DNA of 61,451 nt, counting the filler, from Bonamia ostreae (taxonomy: Eukaryota): the NCBI GenBank assembly GCA_040357525.1. It is 12 parts of 12 records of this genome, joined end to end, with 100 filler letters (N's around TTAATTAATTAA, not from the genome) between each part and the next. Parts side by side here need not be neighbours in the genome. Positions count along the whole stretch, not along the records: positions 51,370 to 56,363 come from JBDODL010000242.1; 11 more parts are not named here. One strand, 5' to 3'. Position numbers and translations under genes: made by a program. Positions 5,843 through 60,853 of the stretch are shown in pieces. Each line of letters begins with the position of its first letter. Within the stretch, counting starts at the first letter, position 1. Below the pieces are notes generated by a model. That model was not told the DNA's origin. It worked only from the letters and a program-made list of their open reading frames with translations, and made no database searches.

Positions 5843-7282
5843 ATGCCGAAGAGGATCCCACGAGAAACAGTAGCAAACATTTTGGAAATCCTGACCGACG
5901 AACCAGTTCCTCCGTCCGCCGCCTCGAAGCGCTATAAAAAGAAGTTCAAAAAGGGAGTAAACTTTGGAAGTTTGGGCTACAAGAACTTCCAAAATGTCTT
6001 AAATGTCTGTCCAGGCGTCATGAAAGTCATTTTGGACGGCGAAGAAAATTACGTGAACGAGAAGAAATATCAGAAAAGCGAATCGAACAAACCTTTCGCT
6101 TCCAAAAATGTCGTGGCATTGCCCAGAAAAGCTAAAAATTCTTTTCAAAATGGCTATAAAAATTCTTTTCAAAATGCCACTTTTGACAACTCTATAAAAT
6201 CTTTTCAGGTTGGCAGTGCTAACAATTTTTATCGGAATAGCAAAAATTTTTACGAAAATGACAATTTTGCGAAAACGAAAAATTTTGATAATTCCAAAAA
6301 TTTTTACGAAAATGACAATTTTGCGAAAACGAAAAATTTTAGTAATTCCAAAAATTTTTACGAAAATGACAATTTTGCGAAAACGAAAAATTTTAATAAT
6401 TCCAAAAATTTTTACGAAAATGACAATTTTGCGAAAACGAAAAATTTTAATAATTCCAAAAATTTTTACGAAAATGACAATTTTGTGAAAACGAAAAATT
6501 TTAATAATTCCAAAAATTTTTACGAAAATGACAATTTTGCGAAAACAAAAAATTTTAGTAATTCCAAAAATTTTTACGAAAATGACAATTCTTTTGGTTC
6601 GTCCAAAGAAAATTTTGTTTCAAAAGATAATTTGTTCCAAAGCGATTCAAAATTTGGCGATAAAACAAATTCGACCAAAATTTTTGATAACAGAGAAAAA
6701 TCTATTTTTGATAAATTTGAGTTAAATTTTGGCCAAAACGATTTTTTCCAGAATTCAAAAACGAATTTTGATCTGCCAAAATTTAAATTTGAAAGAGCAA
6801 ATTCATTTAAGAAGAATAATGGAATGGCTGAAAACCAAATTGACGAAAATAGCCAAAATTTGACTAAAAAGAACGAAAATATTTTAAAAAAGAGAATAAT
6901 CGACGAAACAGATAAACGAAACAAATTTCTTCAAAACCTTAAAAAATTAGAGCCGTTCGATGGCGACAAGAAGGAATTCTTAAACAAACAGGTGAAGAAG
7001 GGAGTAGAACTGGCGTTAGAAACAGTACGAAAAGAAAAAGAGATGAGCAAAAGTAGAGTAGAAGCTTTAATGAGTGTAATAAAGTTAACTGAGGAGGCAA
7101 TCGCGGAGATGGAAACTAGCTCTCTTGGAAGATGTCCAGCTTTTTCTTGTTTTAATTATGTCGAGGTGGTTGTTTGTCCTTGTGGCCATCTATATTGCGA
7201 TGGATGTGCTAAAAGGATCAGCTCGCGATGCTTTTTGTGTTCCAAGGAGGTGATCAAGATGCAAAAATTAAATTTTTTCTGA
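5843..7282 (+). CDS. LOTUS/OST-HTH + 17-aa repeats + coiled coil + C3HC4 RING protein
   Basis: N-terminal YKKKFKKGVNFGSLGYKNFQNVLNVCPGV fits the LOTUS consensus; C-terminal C..C..CGH..C..C..C..C is a RING. Confidence 0.7.
   Translation: MPKRIPRETVANILEILTDEPVPPSAASKRYKKKFKKGVNFGSLGYKNFQNVLNVCPGVMKVILDGEENYVNEKKYQKSESNKPFASKNVVALPRKAKNSFQNGYKNSFQNATFDNSIKSFQVGSANNFYRNSKNFYENDNFAKTKNFDNSKNFYENDNFAKTKNFSNSKNFYENDNFAKTKNFNNSKNFYENDNFAKTKNFNNSKNFYENDNFVKTKNFNNSKNFYENDNFAKTKNFSNSKNFYENDNSFGSSKENFVSKDNLFQSDSKFGDKTNSTKIFDNREKSIFDKFELNFGQNDFFQNSKTNFDLPKFKFERANSFKKNNGMAENQIDENSQNLTKKNENILKKRIIDETDKRNKFLQNLKKLEPFDGDKKEFLNKQVKKGVELALETVRKEKEMSKSRVEALMSVIKLTEEAIAEMETSSLGRCPAFSCFNYVEVVVCPCGHLYCDGCAKRISSRCFLCSKEVIKMQKLNFF
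6233..6590 (+). repeat. 51-bp tandem repeat, about 7 copies (NSKNFYENDNFAKTKNF-type)
   Basis: Unit aattccaaaaatttttacgaaaatgacaattttgcgaaaacgaaaaatttt(a/g)at is visible directly. Confidence 0.95.
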
Positions 7283-10798: not shown

Positions 10799-13700
10799 TC
10801 ATTCCAACACGATGACATCAAGGCCATCGTCAATTTCCACAACTTTTTCTTCCAAACCATTTTCTTCACTGCTTTTTTCGGATTCCGGCGCTTTCTCTTC
10901 AGCCATTTCAGTCAAATCAATAATTTCCAGCGCGCGCATCGGGACCATTAATGGCCTTATTTTGGGCACTTTCTTGTCTCTGTAAACTTCTTCGTATTCA
11001 GATTCTTCTTCGAAGTGTTCGCTGATTGAAATCTCGTTGTCGAAATCTTCGGGATGTGTTAAGCGATAGCGTTTAAGGGCGACGAGTTTTTTGCGCCGCT
11101 TGGAGCGGCTTTTTTTCCGGACGCTGAGGTCGACAATGTGAGTTGTTTCAGGGGATTTTTTGTTTGTGCCGAGCGGGTTGGAATTGTAGAGAGATTTCCA
11201 ATACACTCTTTGGCTAATTTTAGCAATTTTTTAAAGTCGAATTTGTTGTTTGGCCAGTTTAAGTTGTAAATAGAAACGCTCTTATTATGTTGTCGAGACT
11301 GAATAAGAAATCGGATTCTATCGACGGCTTCGGGTCCTTTGAATTAAATTGAAGAACAAATATAATTAAAAAATCGAATTAAAAAATTAACAAAAATTGA
11401 ATTAAAAAATCGAATTACAAAAATTGAACTAAAAAATTAGTAAAAATTGAATTAAAAAAATCGAATTAAGAAATGAATTATAATAATCAAAAAAATTGAA
11501 GAACAAAAATAATAAAAAAATCGAATTAAAAAAATGAATAAAAATAATAAAAAAATCTAATTAAAAAATGAATAAAAATGATTAAAAAATTGAATTTAAA
11601 AAAATCGAATTAAAATGATTAAAAAATTGAAGAATAAAAATGATTAAAAAATCGAATTACAAAAATTAAAAAAATGAACAAAATCACTAAAATCGCCCAA
11701 AAGCCCCGAAATGCAATGAGCGGCGCATTGCGCGACAACTTTCGCATTGTAGCCGCCTTCGAGAAACAAAAGGACTTTTCCATTGCTCTGTTCTCTGATC
11801 AAACGCTCCGTCATGTAATGGAACATTCTCGGAGTCACTTCCAACAGCCCCAACAAATCGCCTCCCGCCGAATCGAACCCGGAAGAGACGAACACCGCGT
11901 CCGGAGCAAATTCCTTCAGAATCGGCGAAACGACGTGGTCGAAGATGGATCTGAATTCGCCGTCGCCAGAGCCGATCGCGACGGGGATGTTGACGTTGCG
12001 CCCGCGAGCGCTGCGACCTCCGACATCGGAAATGCCGCCGGTGCCGGGGAACATTTCCTTTCCGGTGATATCTTTGATTGAAATTTAGTTCAACCGAATT
12101 CTTGATGGACGGAAATGTAAACGATTTTGTCGTCGTCGTAGAAGATGTCTTCTGTTCCGTTTCCGTGGTGCAGGTCCCAGTCGAAAACCAAAATCTTTAT
12201 TTCCGGATTTTTGGCTTGCAAGTTTTTTATAGCGATTCTTTATTGCCATTTTTGGATTTAGCAATTTTAAATAGGCCATTTTAAGTTAAAACGCGATGTT
12301 GTTGACGTGGCAGAACCCGTATTTTCTGTCCAAATCGCAATGGTGTCCTGGCGGTCTCACCATACAAAAGCCTTTTTGCAAAATCGATTTATTTTGTTTT
12401 TTACAGAATTTGCAAAAATTTATTTATTTTGTTTTTTAGAGAATTTGTGCAAAAATCGATTTATTTTGTTTTTTTTACAGAATTTGTGCAAAATTTATTT
12501 ATTTTGTTTTTTTTACAGAATTTGTGAAAAAATCGATTTATTTTGTTTTTTACAGAGTTTGTGCAAAAATCGATTTATTTTGTTTTTTACATAATTTGTG
12601 CAAAAATCGATTTATTTTGTTTTTTGCAGAATTTGTGCAAAAATCGATTTATTTTGTTTTTTGCAGAATTTGTGCAAAAATTTGTTTATTTTGTTTTTTT
12701 ACAGAATTTGTGCAAAAATTTATTTATTTTGTTTTTTACATAATTTGTGCAAAAATTTATTTATTTTGTTTTTTACATAATTTGTGCAAAAATCGATTTA
12801 TTTTGTTTTTTACAGAATTTGTACAAAAATCGATTTATTTTGTTTATATTGAGATTGAAACTAAAACTTAGCCAAACCGTTATTTAACTTTCCTTCAATT
12901 ACAAGTTCTGAAAGAGCGACGCATTGCGCCACACTTTGTTTGACCGAATTTATAGTGAAAACCGATTCGTAATACGAATCGTTGTTGTTGGAATCACAGA
13001 TCGCTTCTCCGATTCTTTCGTTCAGGATAAATAAATCTTCCATGTGATCTTTTGTGTGCGCCAGTTTTATCAACTTTTACGTTAAATTTATTTATTTTGA
13101 CAATTTTTTAGTCAAACCTCTTTAACGCTAAAAATACTTGAATTAGCGATAATTGGGAAACATCTTTTTTTCAAACCGGACAACGTCAAGACGTCCAAAC
13201 AAGCGTCGTAACGTTCTGGGCTATTAGAAAAGTTTAGCAAAGTCGATTTTTTCAAAATTTGAAAATTAAATAAAAAATTTAAATTTGAAAACTAAAAACT
13301 TCAAAATTTGAAAATAAAAACTTCAAAATTTGATAATAAAATAATTGAAATTTGATATTAAAAAGTTAATTTGAAAACAAAAAAATAAAAACTTCAAAAT
13401 TTGATAATAAAAATAACTGAAATTTGAAAATATTTGAAAATAAAAATTCGAAACTCAAAAAAATTAAATAAAATGTCTTCAAAACTTTTCCGGCTCTTCC
13501 GAATTCCCGAAATGGAAAAGACATTCTTCGTCAAAAGCTAAACCAGTTCTATTTCCACAATTTTTCTTTCTTTCGAAACCGTTCTCAGAGCCATTTTGCA
13601 AAACTTTTCGTTTTCCGTTTTTAGCCAATTTTTTCGTTTTCAGAGATTCCGCAAATTCTTCGTCGGAATGAAAAATGTTTTTGACCGGAAAATACCAATT

Positions 13701-32302: not shown

Positions 32303-32376
32303 TGCAACCGGAGGGATTCGAACCCCCGAAAACTACGACCTGAACGCAGCGCCTTAGACCACTCGGCCACGGGTGC
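32303..32376 (-). tRNA. tRNA-Leu(CAG), 74 nt, short variable loop
   Basis: GCACCCG TG GCCGAGTGGTCTAAGGC G CTGCG TTCAGGT CGTAG TTTTC GGGGG TTCGAAT CCCTC CGGTTGC A, followed by a T-run terminator. Confidence 0.9.
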
Positions 32377-33029: not shown

Positions 33030-35910
33030 ATGGTCAAACCCAAAAAGGATAAAACAGTCAAAAAGAAGACAGAGAAAAAATTGGTTGATATTTTTGATTA
33101 TTATCAGCTCTAATTTTTAAAATGTCCGAGATATTTTTTAAAAGTCGATTTTTCGATAAAAATCAATTTTGTCTTATAAAATTTCGGTAAAACAAGTTAA
33201 CTCCACCGCCGCTAATAAAATCTTTTATTAGTTACTAAAGGTGTTTGCACATTTTTGCACTTTTCAAAAATTCTCAATTAATTCAAAACCAATTTCTAAT
33301 AAATAAATTGGAACAATAAACTGGTACTAACACCGCTTATACAATTTTTTGTATTTGTGACAAAGTTATCAAACATTCGAAAATATTTTTTACAAAAATT
33401 TTTAATTCTTTAAAAAAGCCAAAAAAGAAAATTACTAAAAACACGACGAAAAAACAGGTTTTGCAATTTATATGTAAAAAATTTTAAAAATGCCATTTTG
33501 CCACGAAAAAATTGATACAATTTTTTTGCCTAAAAAATGGCTAAATTAACGCTTTTATAAGGAAGCAGTTTTGTTTATAACAAGATTGTGCCAAACGAAC
33601 GCCACATTTCATTAATTTGTAAATTTTTTGACTTTTTAATGTTTTACATTTTTTTCAAAAATTTGTAAAAAACAATAAACATCAAAATTAAGACACAGCC
33701 CAAAAAAGCCATCAAAAAGAACAATGCAAAAACGTCCAAAAAGATAGAACAAACAAAAAAGAAAATAATCGAAAAAAGTTCTTCAGATGTTTCCAGTTCG
33801 AATTCAAGTGACGATTCGAGCTCTTCGTCTCAACAAGAATCGAAAAAACAGTCCAAAAACCAAATCGATTTGAAACTTGATTCTGATGATTCCAATTCAG
33901 ACGATTCATCTTCAACTTCAGACGATTCATCGGATAGTCCAAAAAACAACAAGAAAGTTAAGACAAACCCAAAAAAAACCAAAACCGAGAACAAACAATC
34001 TACAAAAACAAACAAAAAGTCCGAAAAAACAAAACGCAAAATTGGCGATGCAAAAAAAGTCGAAAAAAAGAAAATGAAAGACGATTCCTCTGATTCAGAT
34101 GACAGCTCCTCCGATTCCGAAGAAAGCCCTCAAAACGACAAAATTGCAAAAGGCGCCAAGAACAGCAACGACCAAGAGGAAAAATCATCTTCTGAAAGCA
34201 GCAGCAATTCTGAAGAATCGTCTTCGGAAGAGTCAGAAACCGAAAAGAAATCAATCGAAACAAAAGTTGAACCGAAAAAGAACACAAAAGAGTCGAAAAA
34301 AAGTTCAAGCTCCGAAAGTAGCGAAAACTCTGAAAGCAGCGAATCTGAAAACTCTGAAAGTTCGCAAATTTCTGAAAAAGCTAAAAAGGAAAAATCGGTC
34401 AAAAAAGAGGAAACTGGAAAAAAAGAAAATTTGAACGGAGAAAGTGAAGAAATGGTAAACAAAAAACGTCTTTTCATTAAAAATTTGTCTTTCGAAACAG
34501 ATGAACAGGGTCTTAAGGACTTTTTTAAGGATTGTGGCGAAATTGAGTTTTTTTTTGTTTGTTAAATTTTTTTGTTTGTTAAAATTTTTTGTTTGTTAAA
34601 ATTTTTTTGTTTATTAAAATTTTTTCGTTTGTTAAAATTTTTTCGTTTGTTAAAATTTTTTTGTTTGTTAAAATTTTTTCGTTTGTTAAAATTTTTTCGT
34701 TTGTTATTTTTTTTAATTTTTTTTGTTTGTTAAATTTTTTTTTAAAATTTTTTTGTTTATTAAAATTTTTTCGTTTGTTAAAATTTTTTTGTTTGTTAAA
34801 TTTTTTTAATTTTTTTTCGTTTGTTAAAATTTTTTTGTTTGTTAAAATTTTTTCGTTTGTTAAAATTTTTTTGTTTGTTAAATTTTTTTTAAATTTTTTC
34901 GTTTGTTATAATTTTTTTGTTTGTTAAATTTTTTTAATTTTTTTTCGTTTGTTAAATTTTTTTGTTTGTTAAAATTTTTTTTTTTTTTAATTTTTTTTGT
35001 TTGTTAAATCTTTTTTGTTTGTGAAATCTCTTGTAAAATGTTATATAATAAAAAGAGAAGTAAACATACTGACAAGAAACGGAAAATCGAGAGGAATAGC
35101 ATTTGTCGTTTTCAAAACTGAAGAGTCCTCCGCGAAAGCAGTAAAACTGGATGGCGAAGAATTGAATGACAGATCACTCAAAATCGAATATTCTAAAGGG
35201 AAACCTAGAACCAATAATAGCAGAGACGCTAATACCCCCTTCAAAAGTTTTTTCAAATTTACATTTAAATTTTTATTTTGTCAAATTTTTTAAATTTTAA
35301 TTTTCTATTTCAACTAATTTTTTGTCAATTTTAATTTTGTCAAATTTTGTTTTTCGCTATCCAAATAAATATGCGAAATGATGATCTTTACGTCCGTGTT
35401 ATTGAATAAAATTTATGAAACTTACGATTTCTGATCGCATTAAATAAAAATAATCCAAATTTGCCAAAACTCCAAAAAATTTTATAAAAATTTGGTTTAT
35501 AAAAAGGAAAACAACCCGAAGACTGCAAAACGGTTTTCGTCGGAAATCTGAGCTACGACGCACAAGAAGATCAATTAAACGACTTCTTCTCCAAATGCGG
35601 AGAGATTTCGAGTATTCGAATCGTCACCGACAGAGAAACGGGGAATTCACGCGGCTTCGGCTACGTCGAATTTTCTGAAACCGAATCGGCCAAAAAAGCG
35701 ATTGAATTGAACGGAAAACAAATAATGTCGCGTAGCGTCAAAATCGACTTTGCTGCGCCCCGACGAAGCGGTAATGACGGCCGCAGATCTTTTAACGGCG
35801 ACAGAAGAGGTTTCCGAGGAGGAAGACGCGGTGGCTTCAACAAAAGGGGAAGAGGGTTTGGCAGAAAAGAGGGGATCACAAAGTTTGAAGGTAAAAAGAC
35901 GGTGTTTTAA
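33030..35910 (+). CDS. Nucleolin/Nsr1/Gar2-like protein (acidic-Ser tracts, 2 RRMs, GAR)
   Basis: MVKPK start, S/D/E tracts, RLFIKNLSF/SRGIAFVVF, TVFVGNLSY/SRGFGYVEF, RGG tail, FEGKKTVF. Confidence 0.88.
34548..35012 (+). repeat. ~23-bp T-rich minisatellite inside a nucleolin intron
   Basis: Unit ttttt(c/t)gtttgttaaaa is repeated many times inside RRM1. Confidence 0.9.
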
Positions 35911-36910: not shown

Positions 36911-37089
36911 AGACCTGTCAGAACGAAAATAGCGCATTAAAAGACAAATTTTAGCGATCATCTGGCCGAAGCTATTCACGCTCAACGCTACTTCCATCCG
37001 TCATCATCCAGGGCTGTTGTTTGTCAATTTAGAAAAGACTAGGAACAGTGAAATGTACTAAAGAAATGATCCTGTACAAGTATACTCCT
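36911..37089 (-). ncRNA. U3 snoRNA (~179 nt)
   Basis: In order: box A'/A TATACTTGTACAGGATCATTTCTTTAG, box C' GGATGATGA, box B GAGCGTGA, box C GATGATCG, box D CTGA; terminal stem CCTG/CAGG. Confidence 0.95.
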
Positions 37090-37110
37090 AAAAAAACACC
37101 TCTTTGTTTG

Positions 37111-37148
37111 TATATATAATTTTTATTTTAATATCAAATTTATGGGAT
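37111..37148 (-). promoter_or_regulatory. snRNA-type (type 3) promoter of U3: USE-like ATCCCATA + TATA box
   Basis: TATATATA about 25 nt and ATCCCATAAA about 55 nt upstream of the U3 5' end; T5 run just after the 3' end. Confidence 0.65.
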
Positions 37149-37452
37149 TTTTTGTTTTTAATATCAAATTTGTGCTTCTTTGAAAGTCAAGATGAATATG
37201 TTTAATCCAGTTGGGGAAAATCAAATTATTTCATTACTTTAATTTTTCTAAACCTATTCTGAAATTCTGGAATCCATTTGGTGTTTAATCAGTTTGTAAT
37301 GATTTTTCAATTTTTTTACTGACTGTTAAAATGCAAATGTCGAATATTTCATTTTTTCAAAAACAAAATTTATATTTTATATTATCTAAATTACTTAGAA
37401 TGACAGACCTCAAAAAATTGTGCGCTAAAATATTGTCAAAATAATAAAATTT

Positions 37453-52287: not shown

Positions 52288-54632
52288 ATGTCAAAACTGG
52301 CGAATCTCAGACAAACTCTTCGAAACCTCAAAATCGACGCGTTCATTATTCCGACCAAAGACGCGCACAACGTTCAAATCGTTATTTCCGTAGAGCGAAT
52401 ACATTGCGAGCAGAGACAAGCGCCGCGAGTTCATTTCCGGGTTCAGCGGGTCCGCGGGGACTGCTGTCGTGACCATGGAGCGCGCTTTGCTGTGGGTCGA
52501 CCCCCGCTACTGGTTGGCCGCCGAACTCCAAACCGACAGAAAATTTTGGGAAATCGTCAGAATGGGCCAGAAAAACGCGCCTTCGCTTACTGAATGGCTG
52601 TCTGAGAACTTGTCTGAAGACTCTGTGCTTGGTTTCGACCCGTTTCTGACATCTGCCCGAGAACACAAAACGTGGAAACACAAATTGCGCAAAATAAGAG
52701 TTCGAGCTGTGCCGAAAAATCCCGTCGATTTGATCTGGGACGAACAGCCAAAATATCCCGTCGAAAAAATATTCGTCCACACCTTAAAGTTTTCTGGGAA
52801 TTTTAAGGTATTCCGGAAAAGACGCCAAAACCAAAATAAGAGAATTGAAGCTTCAACTCGCGAAGAGCGGATGTTTTGCCTGTGCGGTGACTTCTTTGGA
52901 TGAAATCGCTTGTAAGCCATTTCACGTCTCAACTCGCTAACATTAAAGGGCTCTTGAATCTGAGAGGAAACGACATTGAGTTCAATCCTGTTTTCATCTC
53001 ATATTGCATCGTCAGTTCGTCGAAAACAACGCTCTTCGTGGATCCTGAAAAACTGGACGAGAAAACGAAGCAGTATTTGCAGACGGAGCTCGAAATCGAG
53101 ATAAAAAATTACGAAGACATCGAAAAGGAATTGCGTTCTGTCGGCGAAATCGCGCGGACCAAAAAGTTGAAAATCTCCGTGTCTCCGGACCAATGCAACC
53201 AAGCGCTGTGCGCAATTTTGTCTGGGATCGACAGCAACCTCATCTTCGAGCAAAGGTCGCCCGTGGAATTGAGCAAAGCTGTCAAAAACGACGTCGAAAT
53301 CGACGGGATGATAAACAGCCATATCAGAGACGGCGCGGCGAAAGTTGTTTTTGCTATTTCCACAGACTGCTTGGATGGCGTGGCTGGAAGAAGCAATGGC
53401 CGAAAAGGATTTGAAATTGACTGAAATTGATGTGGCGGACAAATTGGAATTCTTCCGAAGGTCGATTAGAAAATTTTTATTTTTTGCAAACTTTTTTTTA
53501 ATTATTTTTTTCTGGAAATTTTTATTTTTTTGAAATCGATAAAAAAAATTTTCATTTTTCTGGAAATTTTTATTTTGTGGAAACTTTTATTTTTTTAATT
53601 TTTTTCTGGAAATTTTTATTTTTTGAAAACTTTTATTTTTTTAATTATTTTTTTCTGGAAATTTTTATTTTTTGGAAACTTTTATTTTTTAATTATTTTT
53701 TTCTGGAAATTTTTATTTTTTGAAATCGATAAAAAATTTTCATTTTTCTAGAAATTTTTATTTTTTGAAAACTTTTATTTTTTAATAATTTTTTCTGGAA
53801 ATTTTTGTTTTTAGTAATTTTCCGAAGATCGATTAGAAAATTTTAATTTTTAGCCGACAAAAAGATTTCAAGGGATTGTCGTTCAACTCAATTTCAGCCG
53901 TCGGAAAAAACGGAGCGATTATCCATTATCAACCGACTCCACAAAACAACTCAGAAATGGACCGTTCTAAGCTTTACCTCATCGATTCCGGCGCGCAATA
54001 TTTGTTTTGCGTCGATAAAATTTAGAGACGGCACAACAGACGTCACCCGCACGATGCATTTCGAGCGCCCAACAGAGGAAGAAGTGCGCCAGTTCACGTT
54101 GGTTTTGAAGGGGCACATTGCCCTCGCGCGAGCTGTGTTTCCGGAGGGGCTGTCCGGTTCGATGCTCGACGTGCTCGCGCGGCAACATCTGTGGAAAAGA
54201 GGGCAGAACTACGGCCACGGGACAGGCCACGGCGTCGGGTCTTTCCTCAACGTGCATGAAGGCCCCCAATCCATATCGGTTTCCAAGAAGCCTTCGATCG
54301 GGCTGAAAGCCGGAATGGTCTTGTCGAACGGTAATATTTTCGAGTAATCAATCGTCGCAGAGCCGGGATTTTACAAGAAAGACTGCTTCGGAATAAGGAT
54401 AGAAAGCGTCATCGTCGTCAAGAAAGCAACATTCGAAGGATTCTTGGAGTTCGAAACCGTCACGATGGTCCCGATACAGACGAAAATGGTTGACGTCTCT
54501 CTGTTGGACGACGGGGAGAAGGAATGGCTGAACGCTTATCACCAAAAATGTCTTGCAAAGTTGAGGCCTTTGCTTGAAGACGACGAAAGAGCTCTCAGAT
54601 TTTTGGAGAGCTCTTGTGCTCTGATTGAATAG
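52288..54632 (+). CDS. XPNPEP1: Xaa-Pro aminopeptidase (aminopeptidase P, M24B), multi-exon
   Basis: DAHNSEY, ISGFSGSAG, DEIAWLLNLRGNDI, DSGAQYLDGTTDVTRT, HGTGHGVGSFLNVHEGP, NEPGFY, GIRIES. Confidence 0.96.
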
Positions 54633-54742
54633 ATAATAAAATCAGCGTAAATTTAAAATATTGCAAATTTTGCAATCCAAAAAAGACAAATTTAAAATGG
54701 TGAAAACGTAAATGTAAAGTGGAGAGATTTGATTAAATTTGT

Positions 54743-54951
54743 GCACTCAAAAATCGGCGATCTTTTTGCATTTCGCCTTTGAGTGCTAAATGTGCTATGA
54801 GGTGCAAGCCAAAGGGACGGTTGGCGGTATCATTATTGTTAGAGCAAATATGATCTTACTTTGAAAATAAGATTGCTTTAAAAGCACGACCGTTCCCTTC
54901 ATAGCACTGTCTTTTTAAAGAGACGAAAAATAAAAATGCAGATCAGCATTT
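54743..54951. ncRNA. Unidentified highly structured intergenic RNA candidate
   Basis: Helices GCACTCAAA/TTTGAGTGC, GGCGA/TCGCC, GTGCTATGA/TCATAGCAC and AGGGACGGTTG/CGACCGTTCCCT enclosing a multibranch loop, plus two small hairpins. Confidence 0.6.
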
Positions 54952-55021
54952 AACAGACAATTTTGACAGTCAATTTTAACAGTCAATTTTAAAATCGAAA
55001 AAAATGTTTTGATAATTTAAG

Positions 55022-55432
55022 TCAACTTATCTTTTCTGTATATTTCATTTTAAGATTTCTTTTGAACTCGTTATGTTTCGTTCTGCATTGAATAAAATTA
55101 AAGAATTGTGTTCTTATTGCGCCAGATAAATAAACATCGCCGTTTTTTAAAAAAGCGATTTTATTTTTTGTATCTTTATCTTCTCTTCTAACGTTGGGAT
55201 ATTTGTTTTGCAAATATCTCAACAATTTCAACTCAAAACAGACAAATTTTTCTTTAGAGAAAGTAAAAATCGTTTTTGTCAAATCTAATAAATCTTTTAC
55301 GGCCGAACCTACAATTGTCGTGACAAAGACTAAAAGGATAGGAAGATATTTTTGTTTTGCGTTTTTTATTTTTATCAGCGAAAAATGTTTTTTTGCCATA
55401 ATTGGCAATTTCTTTAGTTTTGGTAATGCCAT
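55022..55432 (-). CDS. Hypothetical basic protein (exon structure uncertain)
   Basis: 136-aa ORF, no recognised motif. Confidence 0.35.
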   Translation of the reverse strand: MALPKLKKLPIMAKKHFSLIKIKNAKQKYLPILLVFVTTIVGSAVKDLLDLTKTIFTFSKEKFVCFELKLLRYLQNKYPNVRREDKDTKNKIAFLKNGDVYLSGAIRTQFFNFIQCRTKHNEFKRNLKMKYTEKIS

Positions 55433-56363: not shown

Positions 56364-57062
56364 NNNNNNNNNNNNNNNNNNNNNNNNNNNNNNNNNNNNN
56401 NNNNNNNTTAATTAATTAANNNNNNNNNNNNNNNNNNNNNNNNNNNNNNNNNNNNNNNNNNNNGATCACCGGGTCCTCAACCAAAACCTCTCGCGAGGAT
56501 GGCAATAACGGTTTTTAATAATTGACCTGCCCGATTGTATTTTTAAAATGGCGCATCTTCCGTTAATTTCGAAATGGTTGTCATTGGCTGGAGAACAATT
56601 GACAGGAACTGTTTTTTTATTGGCATTGCCGTAAATCCCTTTAATTTTTTGTTTACACTAAATTCATTTTGATTTTTATTATTTTATTTTTATATTATTC
56701 TTTTGATCGTGGCCCATAGATAATAACTTTAAACAACAGTCAATTTATTTAAATAACTGGCCATTAGTTTAAAAAAAAAGAAATGTCAAGAGAGCGTTTG
56801 TTTAAGACATCAAAATCTTTTAGATTATAGATATTTCGAATCTGAATTTTCAAATTGAATGTACATAAGAAACATTAAGAGTCCATTTTCAGAGATAGAT
56901 TTCTAAAATCTGTAATCCTTTTCTGATTTAATCTACCATCAGATTGAGCAATAGGAATAGTCCGTTAGGTGTATAAAATCGAAAATAACGATTTGCAACT
57001 TTTCAGTCAAAAGGATTTAATTCTCGTTGGGCATAAATTAACAAGGCTGCAAAGCAAATCCG

Positions 57063-58036
57063 ATGATGTCGATGAAACTAATAATATTAAATTTATGCGT
57101 CATTGGTAGTCAATTGTATGGCCCGCCTAGCAAAGCATGTGAGATGATACCGGTTAGAGCTACTGAAAAGAAATGTCGCGGCACAGAGAATTACTGCGCC
57201 ATTTTCGCAGAAACTGAAGGGAGGACCTGCAAAGAATATTGTGAGGCCAAAAACACGATGTGCATAGCATCGTTTAACGAGATCAACGATTCTTGTAGAG
57301 AGAAAGGGGAGGACACGAAGTGCGCCAGCAAAACCGACGACCAAATCTGCTTCTGTCATCTTGACTTCCTGACTTTGTTCCCGAGGAAAAAGGAAGTTCT
57401 GAAAGAAAAAATGATTGACAAAATCATAGACAAAATATTCGCAAGTTTAGCTTTGACCGATAGAAAATAAAATCAAAGAGATCGCCGCAGAAACAGCGAA
57501 CGATATGAATCCCACTGCCGAAGACGATGAATCGGAAGCAGCAAAAGAGACGATTGCCCAAAACGCCACGAAAAAGCCCTATAAGTGCAAAAGGCCGAGT
57601 TACAACTTGCCATGGCGCTGCAAAAGTTTGATTGCATTAAACAAAGGCTGCTCTCCGTGCACGAGAAGCCTGACGAGTCTGAAACTGGAAAACGTCGGAG
57701 GCTACGACGGCCCGATCACGTTACTGCAGCAGTCGGTCGGCGGGAAGATGGTTCCGCGCAACGAGTCCGGGCGCCATCTCGAAATCGAAGGAAAGCTCGG
57801 GGACGGCGTGATAGGCGAGAAGGTGTTCCTGTTCAAAGGCGAGTGCCTAGGTTTGCTTGGTCACCTTAGACGCGACGATCTTCACCGACTGCGACCATCG
57901 CGTGGCGGAGGGCGACGAGGTCGGCGATTGGCGGGTCGCCGGCGGCGAGAGCCTCTTCGGTGGGACCGACCACAGAGACTGCTCTCCGTTCGAGAGCCGC
58001 GTCTTCGCGCGAGCCGACTGCGAAAGTAAATCGTAA
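57063..58036 (+). CDS. Secreted Cys-rich protein (3 exons)
   Basis: Signal-like N-terminus and Cys-rich module (TCKEYC..C..C..C..ICFC); 34- and 19-nt introns join to a second domain ending IFTDC...GD.VG.WRVAGGESLFG...SKS*. Confidence 0.65.
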
Positions 58037-58039
58037 ACA

Positions 58040-59571
58040 TTAGCTTTTAATCTTCTCGAGCCGCTTCTCGAGCTTGTCATTCTGTTTCAGCGGGAACACA
58101 AAGTAGAGGATGGCCTTAGATCGGAGTAGATCAAAATAAGTTTTGGAATACAAAATAAGTTTTGTAAGTTTTTGAATACAAAATAAGTTTTGTCAACAGT
58201 AAAGCAGCTTTAAAATAAAACAGTGATAGCCGACGCTGCGAACACGGCGTAGTAGAAGACGTTGGCCGCAAAGAACTGCTTGAAGGGGGTGCTCGCCTCC
58301 ATGTCGCGGTAGAAGCGGGTCACGTAGCAGTCCCCGAGCTGCGTCGCCGAGACTCGCGCGAGGAGGTGCGAGACCGGGAGACTCAGCGCCAGCAGCAGCA
58401 CCGCGTTCACCAGAAACGCGTCGGCGTAGGTGTTCCGCGACTCCATTTTGTAGCCGACGAAGATGAAGGGGACGATGACGCTGAGCCGCAGGAGCCCGAA
58501 GACGGCCGCCGCCAGAAGGTAGAGCGCGAAGAAGATTGTCACCGCGAGCGAAACGAAGTAGAAGCCGTCTTCGGTGAGAAAGGAAACCTGTTGTCACGCC
58601 GGAGACGATGATCCCGATCAAGTCCACGCGGTGCTGCTCGGAGACCAACACGCCCAGAACGATGGCCGCGACCCAGAACGCGCTCATCAGAGCACTTAAT
58701 GTTAGCGAGCGAACCAGAAGACGGAGAGGGCGAGGTGCGCCCACGGCCAGATCGGGTTGCCGCCTTTGAACTGGTAGGACACCTGCAGGTTCAAGTAGTC
58801 CTCCTTGACGACTTTGACCGCTTCCACGAAGGTGTTGACCGAACTTCGCCGCGAGAAGAAGTTCATGGCGTCGAGGCTGCTTTGGCGAACAAAACCTTTT
58901 GAGGACCTCTTGGCCCGACGCGTAGAGTTGCCGGGCGCGCGCGCCGAGGGCCTTTCTGCAGGCGTCGTAGTCTTCGCGCTGCATCGGGGAGGGCCGGTAC
59001 TTCCAGTAGCAGAACAGAGTTGCCGGAAGAGCCACGAGCCCAATGCCGAGCAGCACGCAGAACGGGAACCACGCGATGAAGTCCATCACCGCGATGGCGT
59101 ACTCGAGCAGGCTGAGGCTCCTGTCGGAGGCGGAGAAGAAAATCGGCAACAGGACAACGAGGTAGACGGCCAGACAGACGCTCGTCCCGACCAGAGACTT
59201 GACGATCCGCTTGCTCAGGTTGTCTCCGCCGTACTTGACGAAAATCGCGTTGAAGAAGAAGATCGAGAACGGCGCGACGAGCACGACGAGCGCGACGGTG
59301 ACGCCGCTGAAAGTCTGGAACAGCACGTCGTCGCTGATGTCCGTCGCCCCGGAGCCGTTGGCGCCGCTCGCCGGGACCGCGATCGTGGTCGTGAAGGCGA
59401 AGGCCATGAGAACGATCTGGCAGTTGGCGTCAAAACCGCTATGAGCTTGGGCGCGATGCCGGTGTCGTCGTCGGGGTGGGAAAAGCGAGTGACGAAGAGA
59501 GCGGCGCAGACGAGAAGCAAAAACGGAAACACGCAGATGGTTATGATCAGAGAAATGTCGTTGCCATTCAT
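58040..59571 (-). CDS. LMBR1/LIMR-family polytopic membrane protein (6 exons)
   Basis: FSHPDD...PKLI, PFSIFF, GIGLVALP..L...RP, FLVNAVLLL; four 19-20-nt introns and one longer last intron. Confidence 0.85.
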
Positions 59572-59674
59572 CGTCCACTTTATCGGATGTTGTTAATGTT
59601 TTAATCGTAGCCAAAAGTTTATTTGGTCTTGATCTGTTCGTTTCCCGAAGAGTCAACTTTTTCTCACAAAATCA

Positions 59675-59790
59675 ATTACAACGATAAATTTGTACAAAGT
59701 CGATAACAACGATAAATTTCTACAAAGTCGATAACAACGATATTTCTACAAAGTCGATAAGAACGATAATTCTGAACAAAGTAAGACAAA
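59675..59790. repeat. ~29-bp tandem repeat, about 4 copies
   Basis: Unit acaacgataaatttctacaaagtcgata. Confidence 0.85.
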
Positions 59791-59803
59791 AAAAATTTAC
59801 TGT

Positions 59804-60853
59804 TTACGCTGCTTTGACCAACATGAAAACGTTCCGGGTCTTAAAGCTAACCGAAATTAAAGCGTTTTTGTCATCCAACTGCTTCATCCCGTTAGAGTCG
59901 ATCAATTTGAACTTTTTAAAGGGCAGATTCTTCTTCTTAATTTCGTCCGCCACTTTCGAGTAAATAAACGCCACTTTTTGCGCCGAATATGCGACAAAGT
60001 TAAAAGTGGATCCGTCTGGAAATCGGACGCGCACTTCGATTCCATCCTCTTTGTCCCTCTCTTGGGAAACTGACTCGAACCCCCTTTCTCGCTCCGCGTC
60101 TTGGTTCGCCGCTAGCGCGAACGCTTCGTCTTGGCTCCGCATTAAGTTGAGACGTTCTCTCTCTGCGACCCTCTGTCTTTCCTGCTCTTCCGCCCTTCTC
60201 TGCTCGGCAATTCTTCTTCTCTCTTGCTCTGCAGTTCTCCGGGACTCGTTTTGGTTCAAGTTGTCTGCGTGCGTTTCACTGCTTTCTAACCGTCTCCCTC
60301 CGAAGTAATGGCCGATCCTGTTGCGGCTTCCTTCGACTCTGTGCCCGGCCTCCGAGTTGGCCGGAGGCCTGATGTCCACCTCGGCGTTCACTTCCTTCCG
60401 CGCAACGAGGAGGAGCAGAATCGGAAGCGAAACGATAAAGTGGAAGATGACGCAGAACCCGGCAACCAGATAGAGAGCTTCGTTTCTGCAAAATTAAACA
60501 AGTTTTAACGCTTTCAAGTCGTCCTTCTGCGAGATTAAGGCGGCGTAGACCGGGAAGCCGACTACGCACATTACTGCACCGAGCACATGTCAGATGAAGA
60601 GCGTCGCTGGCCGAATCCTTTTCTCCTTGTCGTAGAGCCACAAGAGCCGCCAAAGACGTATCACAACGACTCGGATGTCGTCGATCAACGGCCACCAGAG
60701 CAGGACAGCGTTTTTGTTCGCGGAGACAAAATAAGTGAGGGAGGTGATGATGAGCTGGACCGAAGTCGTCGCCGCGATTACGATCGTCAGAACATAGTCT
60801 TCTCCAAACAGTCCCTGGTCCGTCCAAAGTCTTTTGTCGAAAAAGATTTGCAT
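59804..60853 (-). CDS. Multi-TM protein with coiled coil and C-terminal UBX domain; apparent in-frame TGA at 60590-60592
   Basis: LMRSQDEAF and IEVRVRFPDGS..F (UBX); hydrophobic N-terminal half; 24-nt intron near 60488-60511. Confidence 0.75.

Follow-up and report, generated by a model that had tools for sequence, protein, structure and literature searches.

Plasmodium falciparum possesses orphan structured RNAs, listed as 'RNAs of unknown function', which lie as GC-rich islands within an AT-rich genome and are backed by both expression and conservation across related species. The telomerase RNA of plants and ciliates is, according to the part of the source consulted here, transcribed by RNA polymerase III (pol III) from a type-3 promoter, and the same part records that a dedicated search for telomerase RNA in Rhizaria failed (PMC8287931). 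The oyster parasite Bonamia ostreae is of economic importance, and its published assembly is fragmentary (12.24 Mb, N50 1417 bp), with 33.3% GC and 5253 genes separated by a median of 218 bp (PMC11069148, Table 1). The accessible text of that genome paper has no mention of snRNA, ncRNA or telomer*. A search for ncRNA of this species in print found nothing beyond a passing mention in the accessible text of PMC9329632.

The whole stretch of DNA analysed here, hereafter the window (61,451 nucleotides, filler included), is by its sequence nuclear DNA of B. ostreae, a haplosporidian (Ascetosporea, Rhizaria), with approximately 33% GC, short introns, one U3 snoRNA and one tRNA. Its composition reaches 0.53 GC over an LMBR1-like gene at 58000-60000; over 48% of its length, a 492-aa open reading frame (ORF) at 58193-59671 matches the hypothetical protein MHBO_001130 [Bonamia ostreae] with 100% identity. 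A run of N lies near 56370-56415. The candidate sits, as the initial annotation had stated, between two convergent genes: the fold occupies the 389-nt spacer separating an aminopeptidase-P-like gene (+ strand) from an ORF of 136 aa (- strand), of which about 337 nt are free by our reading of the gene ends. The features of this locus are as follows.

54348-54632, + strand: final exon of the aminopeptidase-P-like gene (Peptidase_M24, E = 6e-22), with its TAG stop codon at 54630-54632
54709-54741, no strand assigned: module of some 30 nt that abuts the fold on the left, from contig comparison
54743-54786, + strand: hairpin 1, with a 9-bp lower stem, a one-sided 4-nt bulge, a 5-bp upper stem and a 12-nt loop
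54787-54791, + strand: single-stranded linker, from pair probabilities
54792-54907, + strand: domain 2, in which helix A is stacked on helix B, closing the distal part 54826-54883
54801-54810, + strand: mini-hairpin GGU-GCAA-GCC between helices A and B (P ~0.83)
54908-54925, + strand: hairpin of 7 bp, two of them G-U, whose 5' arm is the T5 at 54912-54916
54934-54951, + strand: A/U-rich hairpin of 6 bp, from pair probabilities
54949-54992, no strand assigned: 13-nt tandem repeat of 3.4 copies directly right of the fold, one copy of which holds AAUUUUGA
55022-55432, - strand: lysine-rich orphan ORF of 136 aa, the convergent neighbour

An AATAAA is found on the + strand at 54635-54640, three bases past the aminopeptidase-P-like stop codon. 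The 136-aa ORF has no Pfam domain, and its sole database match is the window's own protein; part of it is covered by contigs of the sequencing runs X3, X4 and X5. Between these neighbours the candidate stands out in composition, as GC is 0.41 in the core against 0.23 in the left flank, and 0.27 then 0.17 in the right, with sharp edges. No reading frame in the core is open beyond 45 aa, and ARAGORN finds no tRNA genes in 54500-55200; a tRNA or tRNA-derived element was rejected on the lack of any cloverleaf in that interval. The earlier failure to place the sequence in a known RNA family is borne out by Rfam 15, whose top-scoring matches reach 13-21 bits where the families require 43-90 (E at least 0.69). 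These searches used gathering thresholds, and covered the whole window at E <=1, and 701 nt and 291 nt at E <=10.

The strong folding described for these approximately 210 nt holds against 200 dinucleotide shuffles, with 54743-54951 reaching z = -6.29 on the + strand and -4.45 on the - strand, and the core, 54743-54907, reaching -6.18 and -5.05 respectively. None of the 200 shuffles folds as well as the + strand core, and the longer stretch 54707-54980 still has z = -4.51. When 234 random 165-nt windows were each compared with 20 shuffles, their z averaged -0.37 (sd 1.27) and none reached the -5.45 of the candidate under the same estimate, the candidate's frame having been chosen and those of the controls not. 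The lowest of these random windows were a tandem array (z = -5.22) and a second window at -5.06, which rose to -2.97 after 200 shuffles. Once GC is regressed out, the + strand frame nearest the candidate ranks 7th of 1454 on a 170-nt grid, and five of the six frames above it fall within a 37-nt minisatellite at 12373-12845, an array that itself folds with z = -4.9 and is a source of false structure calls. Other strongly folding windows are either one tandem array or ordinary (z = -2.9, -2.7 and -3.0). The fold is real and exceptional for the window: a single-copy, non-coding GC island outside the described families.

Much of the secondary structure originally drawn by eye is recovered by the partition function. 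The 9 + 5 bp hairpin at 54743-54786 has pair probabilities of 0.93-1.0, helix A (54792-54800 / 54899-54907, 9 bp) is formed with P ~1 except for its last pair at 0.75, and the two further hairpins at 54908-54925 and 54934-54951 are well supported. The second helix, B, exists and is stacked on helix A as proposed, and only its size changes: it consists of 13 pairs rather than 11 (54813-54825 / 54884-54898), with two single-base bulges and P ~0.7. The distal region was originally seen as a junction with three short hairpins. This is the optimum of the - strand; on the + strand it is disfavoured, since forcing it there yields -45.7 kcal/mol against -58.9 kcal/mol for one long irregular distal hairpin. 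Hence the distal 58 nt (54826-54883) are ambiguous in fold.

The proposal of a two-state switch did not survive. It relied on a 12-nt unpaired bulge between helices A and B, which could pair instead with 54821-54831. This segment is instead predicted to fold on itself (P ~0.83) into the mini-hairpin at 54801-54810, three pairs capped by GCAA, a loop that is of GNRA type on the + strand only. The competing pairing amounts to five Watson-Crick pairs, 54808-54812 / 54821-54825, with a probability of 0.000 against 0.7 for helix B. Hence there is no sign of a switch.

Three properties lean towards the + strand as the one that would be read, and are a lean rather than proof. The + strand fold is 6.6-9.8 kcal/mol more stable than that of the - strand; it contains five G-U pairs against one, a weak difference (~0.1 by sign test); and it bears the GCAA tetraloop, where the same site read from the - strand is UUGC. 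On this strand the T5 reported to follow the domain is present at 54912-54916. Another T5, overlooked by the initial annotation, precedes it at 54763-54767 in the 12-nt loop of hairpin 1; it makes the later run less convincing as a pol III stop and, provided that T5 does stop pol III in this organism, counts against transcription by that polymerase.

Copies of the locus were sought in a comparison set of 13 records, the contigs of four runs at a likeness of at least 80%, in which contigs show presence and not absence, and in which the assignment of run X3 as RNA is a guess. The body of the fold occurs once per run in X3, X4 and X5, with 0-1 differences, and no second copy is found among the 13 records. 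In X3, record 1 (274 nt) spans 54707-54980 with a single difference, a T>A change in the linker (54787); in X4, records 9 and 10 agree fully over 54717-55150; and in X5, record 11 does so over 54849-55116. The contig cover of X3, which has no record on 54450-54689 or 54981-55002, and the contig depths were not counted as evidence. A single copy per run speaks against a dispersed element, and a MITE or foldback transposon was rejected, the candidate having one copy in the window and several separate helices without a terminal inverted repeat. Scans of JGI metagenomes with the flank module and the RNA core returned no relatives, as did those of IMG/VR, and a 17-nt piece of the flank module was found in no papers by full-text search.

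The module directly left of the fold recurs. In records 2, 3 and 4 of X3, and records 7 and 8 of X4, the match is confined to 54702/54709-54738/54741 and flanked on either side by unrelated sequence. Its right-hand limit is 54738 in records 2 and 3, 54740 in record 4 and 54741 in record 7. As the likeness breaks off 2-5 nt short of where pairing begins, approximately position 54742 is a real segment boundary. The X3 records with the module have a mean word depth much larger than that of the fold-bearing record, though contig depth cannot rank them. AT-rich minisatellites fill the non-coding DNA of the window (69 TRF rows), for example a 37-nt unit repeated 12.8 times (12373-12845), a 54-nt unit repeated 6.5 times (6241-6590) and an 18-nt unit repeated 28 times (34550-35026). 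Derivation of the flank module from the 37-nt minisatellite was rejected, as the likeness is not significant, and so was derivation of hairpin 1 from it, since 264 of 730 windows score as well, although one gapped pattern was unique.

The window also contains other small RNA genes with which the candidate can be compared.

36913-37089, - strand: U3 snoRNA gene (Rfam RF00012, 69.9 bits)
32303-32376, - strand: tRNA-Leu(CAG), with T6 directly after it and a T4 inside the gene
35373-35438, + strand: likely box C/D snoRNA, SNORD18-like (37.1 bits against a gathering threshold of 41, E = 0.0026); the C box ATGATGA is clear, and a D box CTGA and terminal 4-bp stem are present

Upstream of the U3 gene (36913-37190, - strand) are TCCCATAA at -58..-51, TATATATA at -29..-22 and two occurrences of an AAATTTGATAT motif, and a T5 follows closely on its 3' end. 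This arrangement resembles the type-3 promoter, with an upstream sequence element (USE) and TATA box, and the T-run termination of plants and ciliates, as set out in the consulted part of PMC8287931. Both the U3 and the tRNA gene tolerate an internal T4, and end with T5 and T6 respectively, a guide to which T-runs act as pol III stops here. With U3 as the one reference gene for a type-3 (USE + TATA) check, the likeness of the upstream regions is not significant; the T5 at 54912-54916 fits, whereas that at 54763-54767 does not. The flank module was rejected as a U3-type promoter: the MAFFT alignment looked colinear, but 443 of 1744 AT-rich windows equal its local score of 22. Individual motifs are similarly common: the 13-nt upstream motif of U3 has 43 matches when two mismatches are permitted, TCCCATAA with one mismatch is found 40 times against 47 expected, which is chance level, and the counts of the motif CAAAA..AYAAATTT are inflated by tandem arrays. 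Motifs like the 13-nt repeat on the right of the fold, GTCAATTTT / GTCAAATTTT, also occur upstream of the C/D snoRNA candidate, at 35280-35350.

No reading of the sequence by itself improves on the overall suggestion of a divergent or new ncRNA, which is carried by the fold, the single copy, the non-coding core and the position outside Rfam, whereas the specific identities that accompanied it have fallen away. We tentatively propose, as quite possible though short of probable, that the locus is a lineage-specific, single-copy gene for a small structured non-coding RNA of B. ostreae on the + strand. Its transcription, strand, ends and any function are what we infer. The RNA would start near 54741-54743, and end either at the T5 at 54912-54916, giving a length of about 172 nt, or further right. 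It would have two domains: a 44-nt hairpin, and a long coaxial stem, formed by helices A and B, that carries an irregular distal arm and from which a GNRA-capped mini-hairpin branches. By analogy with U3, and other small nuclear and nucleolar RNAs, it might serve as the protein-binding scaffold of a ribonucleoprotein (RNP).

Two other explanations, both serious rivals, deny the locus an RNA gene of its own. It is somewhat unlikely to be a non-functional palindromic relic, in which imperfect inverted repeats from repeat-rich, AT-rich intergenic DNA fold on paper only. Both strands do lie far below their shuffles in folding energy, which is what any inverted repeat in the DNA would produce, and AT-rich repeats, which provide the 69 tandem-repeat rows and the one array at z = -4.9, can yield functionless palindromes; yet the local repeats are AT-rich, whereas this is an island of 0.41 GC in flanks of 0.17-0.27, composed of several separate helices rather than one foldback, present as a single copy, and without significant likeness to the 37-nt minisatellite. 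The position in a 389-nt spacer between convergent genes instead suggests a cis-acting structure, either within the transcript of the - strand orphan ORF, in an extended 3' UTR or a read-through tail, or as a structured barrier or terminator between the two genes, and the - strand fold is significant in itself (z = -5.05) with a tidy four-way junction. This is nevertheless unlikely, as it is the + strand that is more stable and bears the G-U pairs and GNRA loop, and no AATAAA is found on the - strand between 55021 and 54707. Short UTRs are moreover expected given the median intergenic distance of 218 bp (PMC11069148, Table 1), which counts against a cis-element.

The remaining alternatives give the candidate RNA a named identity. 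A much-diverged universal RNP RNA beyond recognition by Rfam, whether telomerase RNA, RNase P/MRP RNA or SRP RNA, would be consistent with a size of 170-275 nt and with the T-run after the domain. It would also be consistent with the succession of a 5' hairpin and a long helix enclosing a multi-helix domain, which we take to resemble P3 plus P4 and the S-domain. That no telomerase RNA is known for Rhizaria, according to the consulted part of PMC8287931, leaves room for one. However, none of these families has an Rfam match at E <=10 in the 291-nt or 701-nt searches, and the CR-I/CR-V and SRP helix-8 motifs could not be placed by eye. No template was found in 54650-55000, on either strand, for nine common telomere units plus one base, from which the Bonamia motif may differ, and no telomeric array is present within the window. 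Such an identity is therefore very unlikely, and the fuller version, a telomerase or other universal RNP RNA too diverged for Rfam and with the template for a still unknown telomere motif, is a faint prospect. A spliced-leader RNA gene would have an exon at 54707-54740 (about 34 nt), a donor GT at 54741-54742 and an Sm-like site at 54959-54966, where AAUUUUGA on the + strand fits the Sm-site motif RAU4-6GR. The short shared module that recurs with other flanks, the GT directly after it and the Sm-like site downstream are all features in common with spliced-leader RNAs, such as that of Paulinella micropora. Spliced-leader trans-splicing is known in one rhizarian, Paulinella, and the leader of that species, in the consulted part of PMC6053224, has no likeness to the Bonamia module. 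The module differs from a leader in having upstream flanks elsewhere, as in the + orientation 85 and 426 letters precede it in two X3 records, which is impossible for a 5' leader (from contigs only, with the kind of X3 guessed), and a DNA-like paralogue in X4 shares sequence upstream of the module too. In two records the shared part also stops at 54738, short of the proposed donor GT, with which its end does not coincide. With no GT after the shared part on the - strand, a spliced leader was rejected in both orientations, and we regard it as highly improbable. Barely credible, finally, are an atypical H/ACA snoRNA on the - strand and a two-state, riboswitch-like element on the + strand. The ACA that had prompted the former is indeed present directly after hairpin 1, the last hairpin on the - strand, at 54742-54740, and the large 5' domain, short hinge and 3' hairpin before it are likewise features of box H/ACA snoRNAs. 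Other features of the class are lacking: within 54775-54805 the single ANANNA belongs to helix A, and the hinge reads AUUUA; hairpin 1 has only its one-sided 4-nt bulge rather than the two-sided internal loop of a pseudouridylation pocket; and the 5' domain is a multi-helix junction. The riboswitch-like element has in its favour that a 5-bp alternative pairing exists, and was rejected because that alternative, at P = 0.000, is not comparable to the fold with which it would be exclusive. No riboswitch or H/ACA family scores in Rfam at E <=10 (291 nt, 701 nt).

The stretch is a sound candidate in a poorly known parasite, rather than a demonstrated new RNA. Transcription would make it the first orphan structured RNA of Ascetosporea, and a handle on the architecture of small-RNA genes in that lineage; if it were instead a telomerase or other universal RNP RNA, no such RNA would have been identified in Rhizaria before. 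If not transcribed, it would indicate that fold statistics, used by themselves, over-call in protist DNA that is rich in AT and in repeats.

Among known systems, the U3 gene of the same window offers the nearest comparison in setting, being likewise a compact non-coding GC island (0.40 in flanks of 0.21) of similar length that is followed by T5. The two differ in that U3 has recognisable boxes and an Rfam match with an unexceptional fold (MFE z = +0.67), whereas the candidate has an extreme fold and no family, and the DNA upstream of the candidate is not significantly like that of U3. The telomerase RNA of plants and ciliates shares with it the small size, the T-run end and a stem-loop-rich body, and would occupy a slot that is unfilled in Rhizaria; the candidate differs in its lack of a template for the nine motifs, its lack of significant USE/TATA likeness and the T5 in its first hairpin. 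The orphan RNAs of P. falciparum are expressed and conserved, whereas the Bonamia candidate is known from sequence alone. In every other respect compared they are alike: each is a GC-rich, strongly folding, single-copy intergenic island in the AT-rich genome of a parasite, and belongs to no family.
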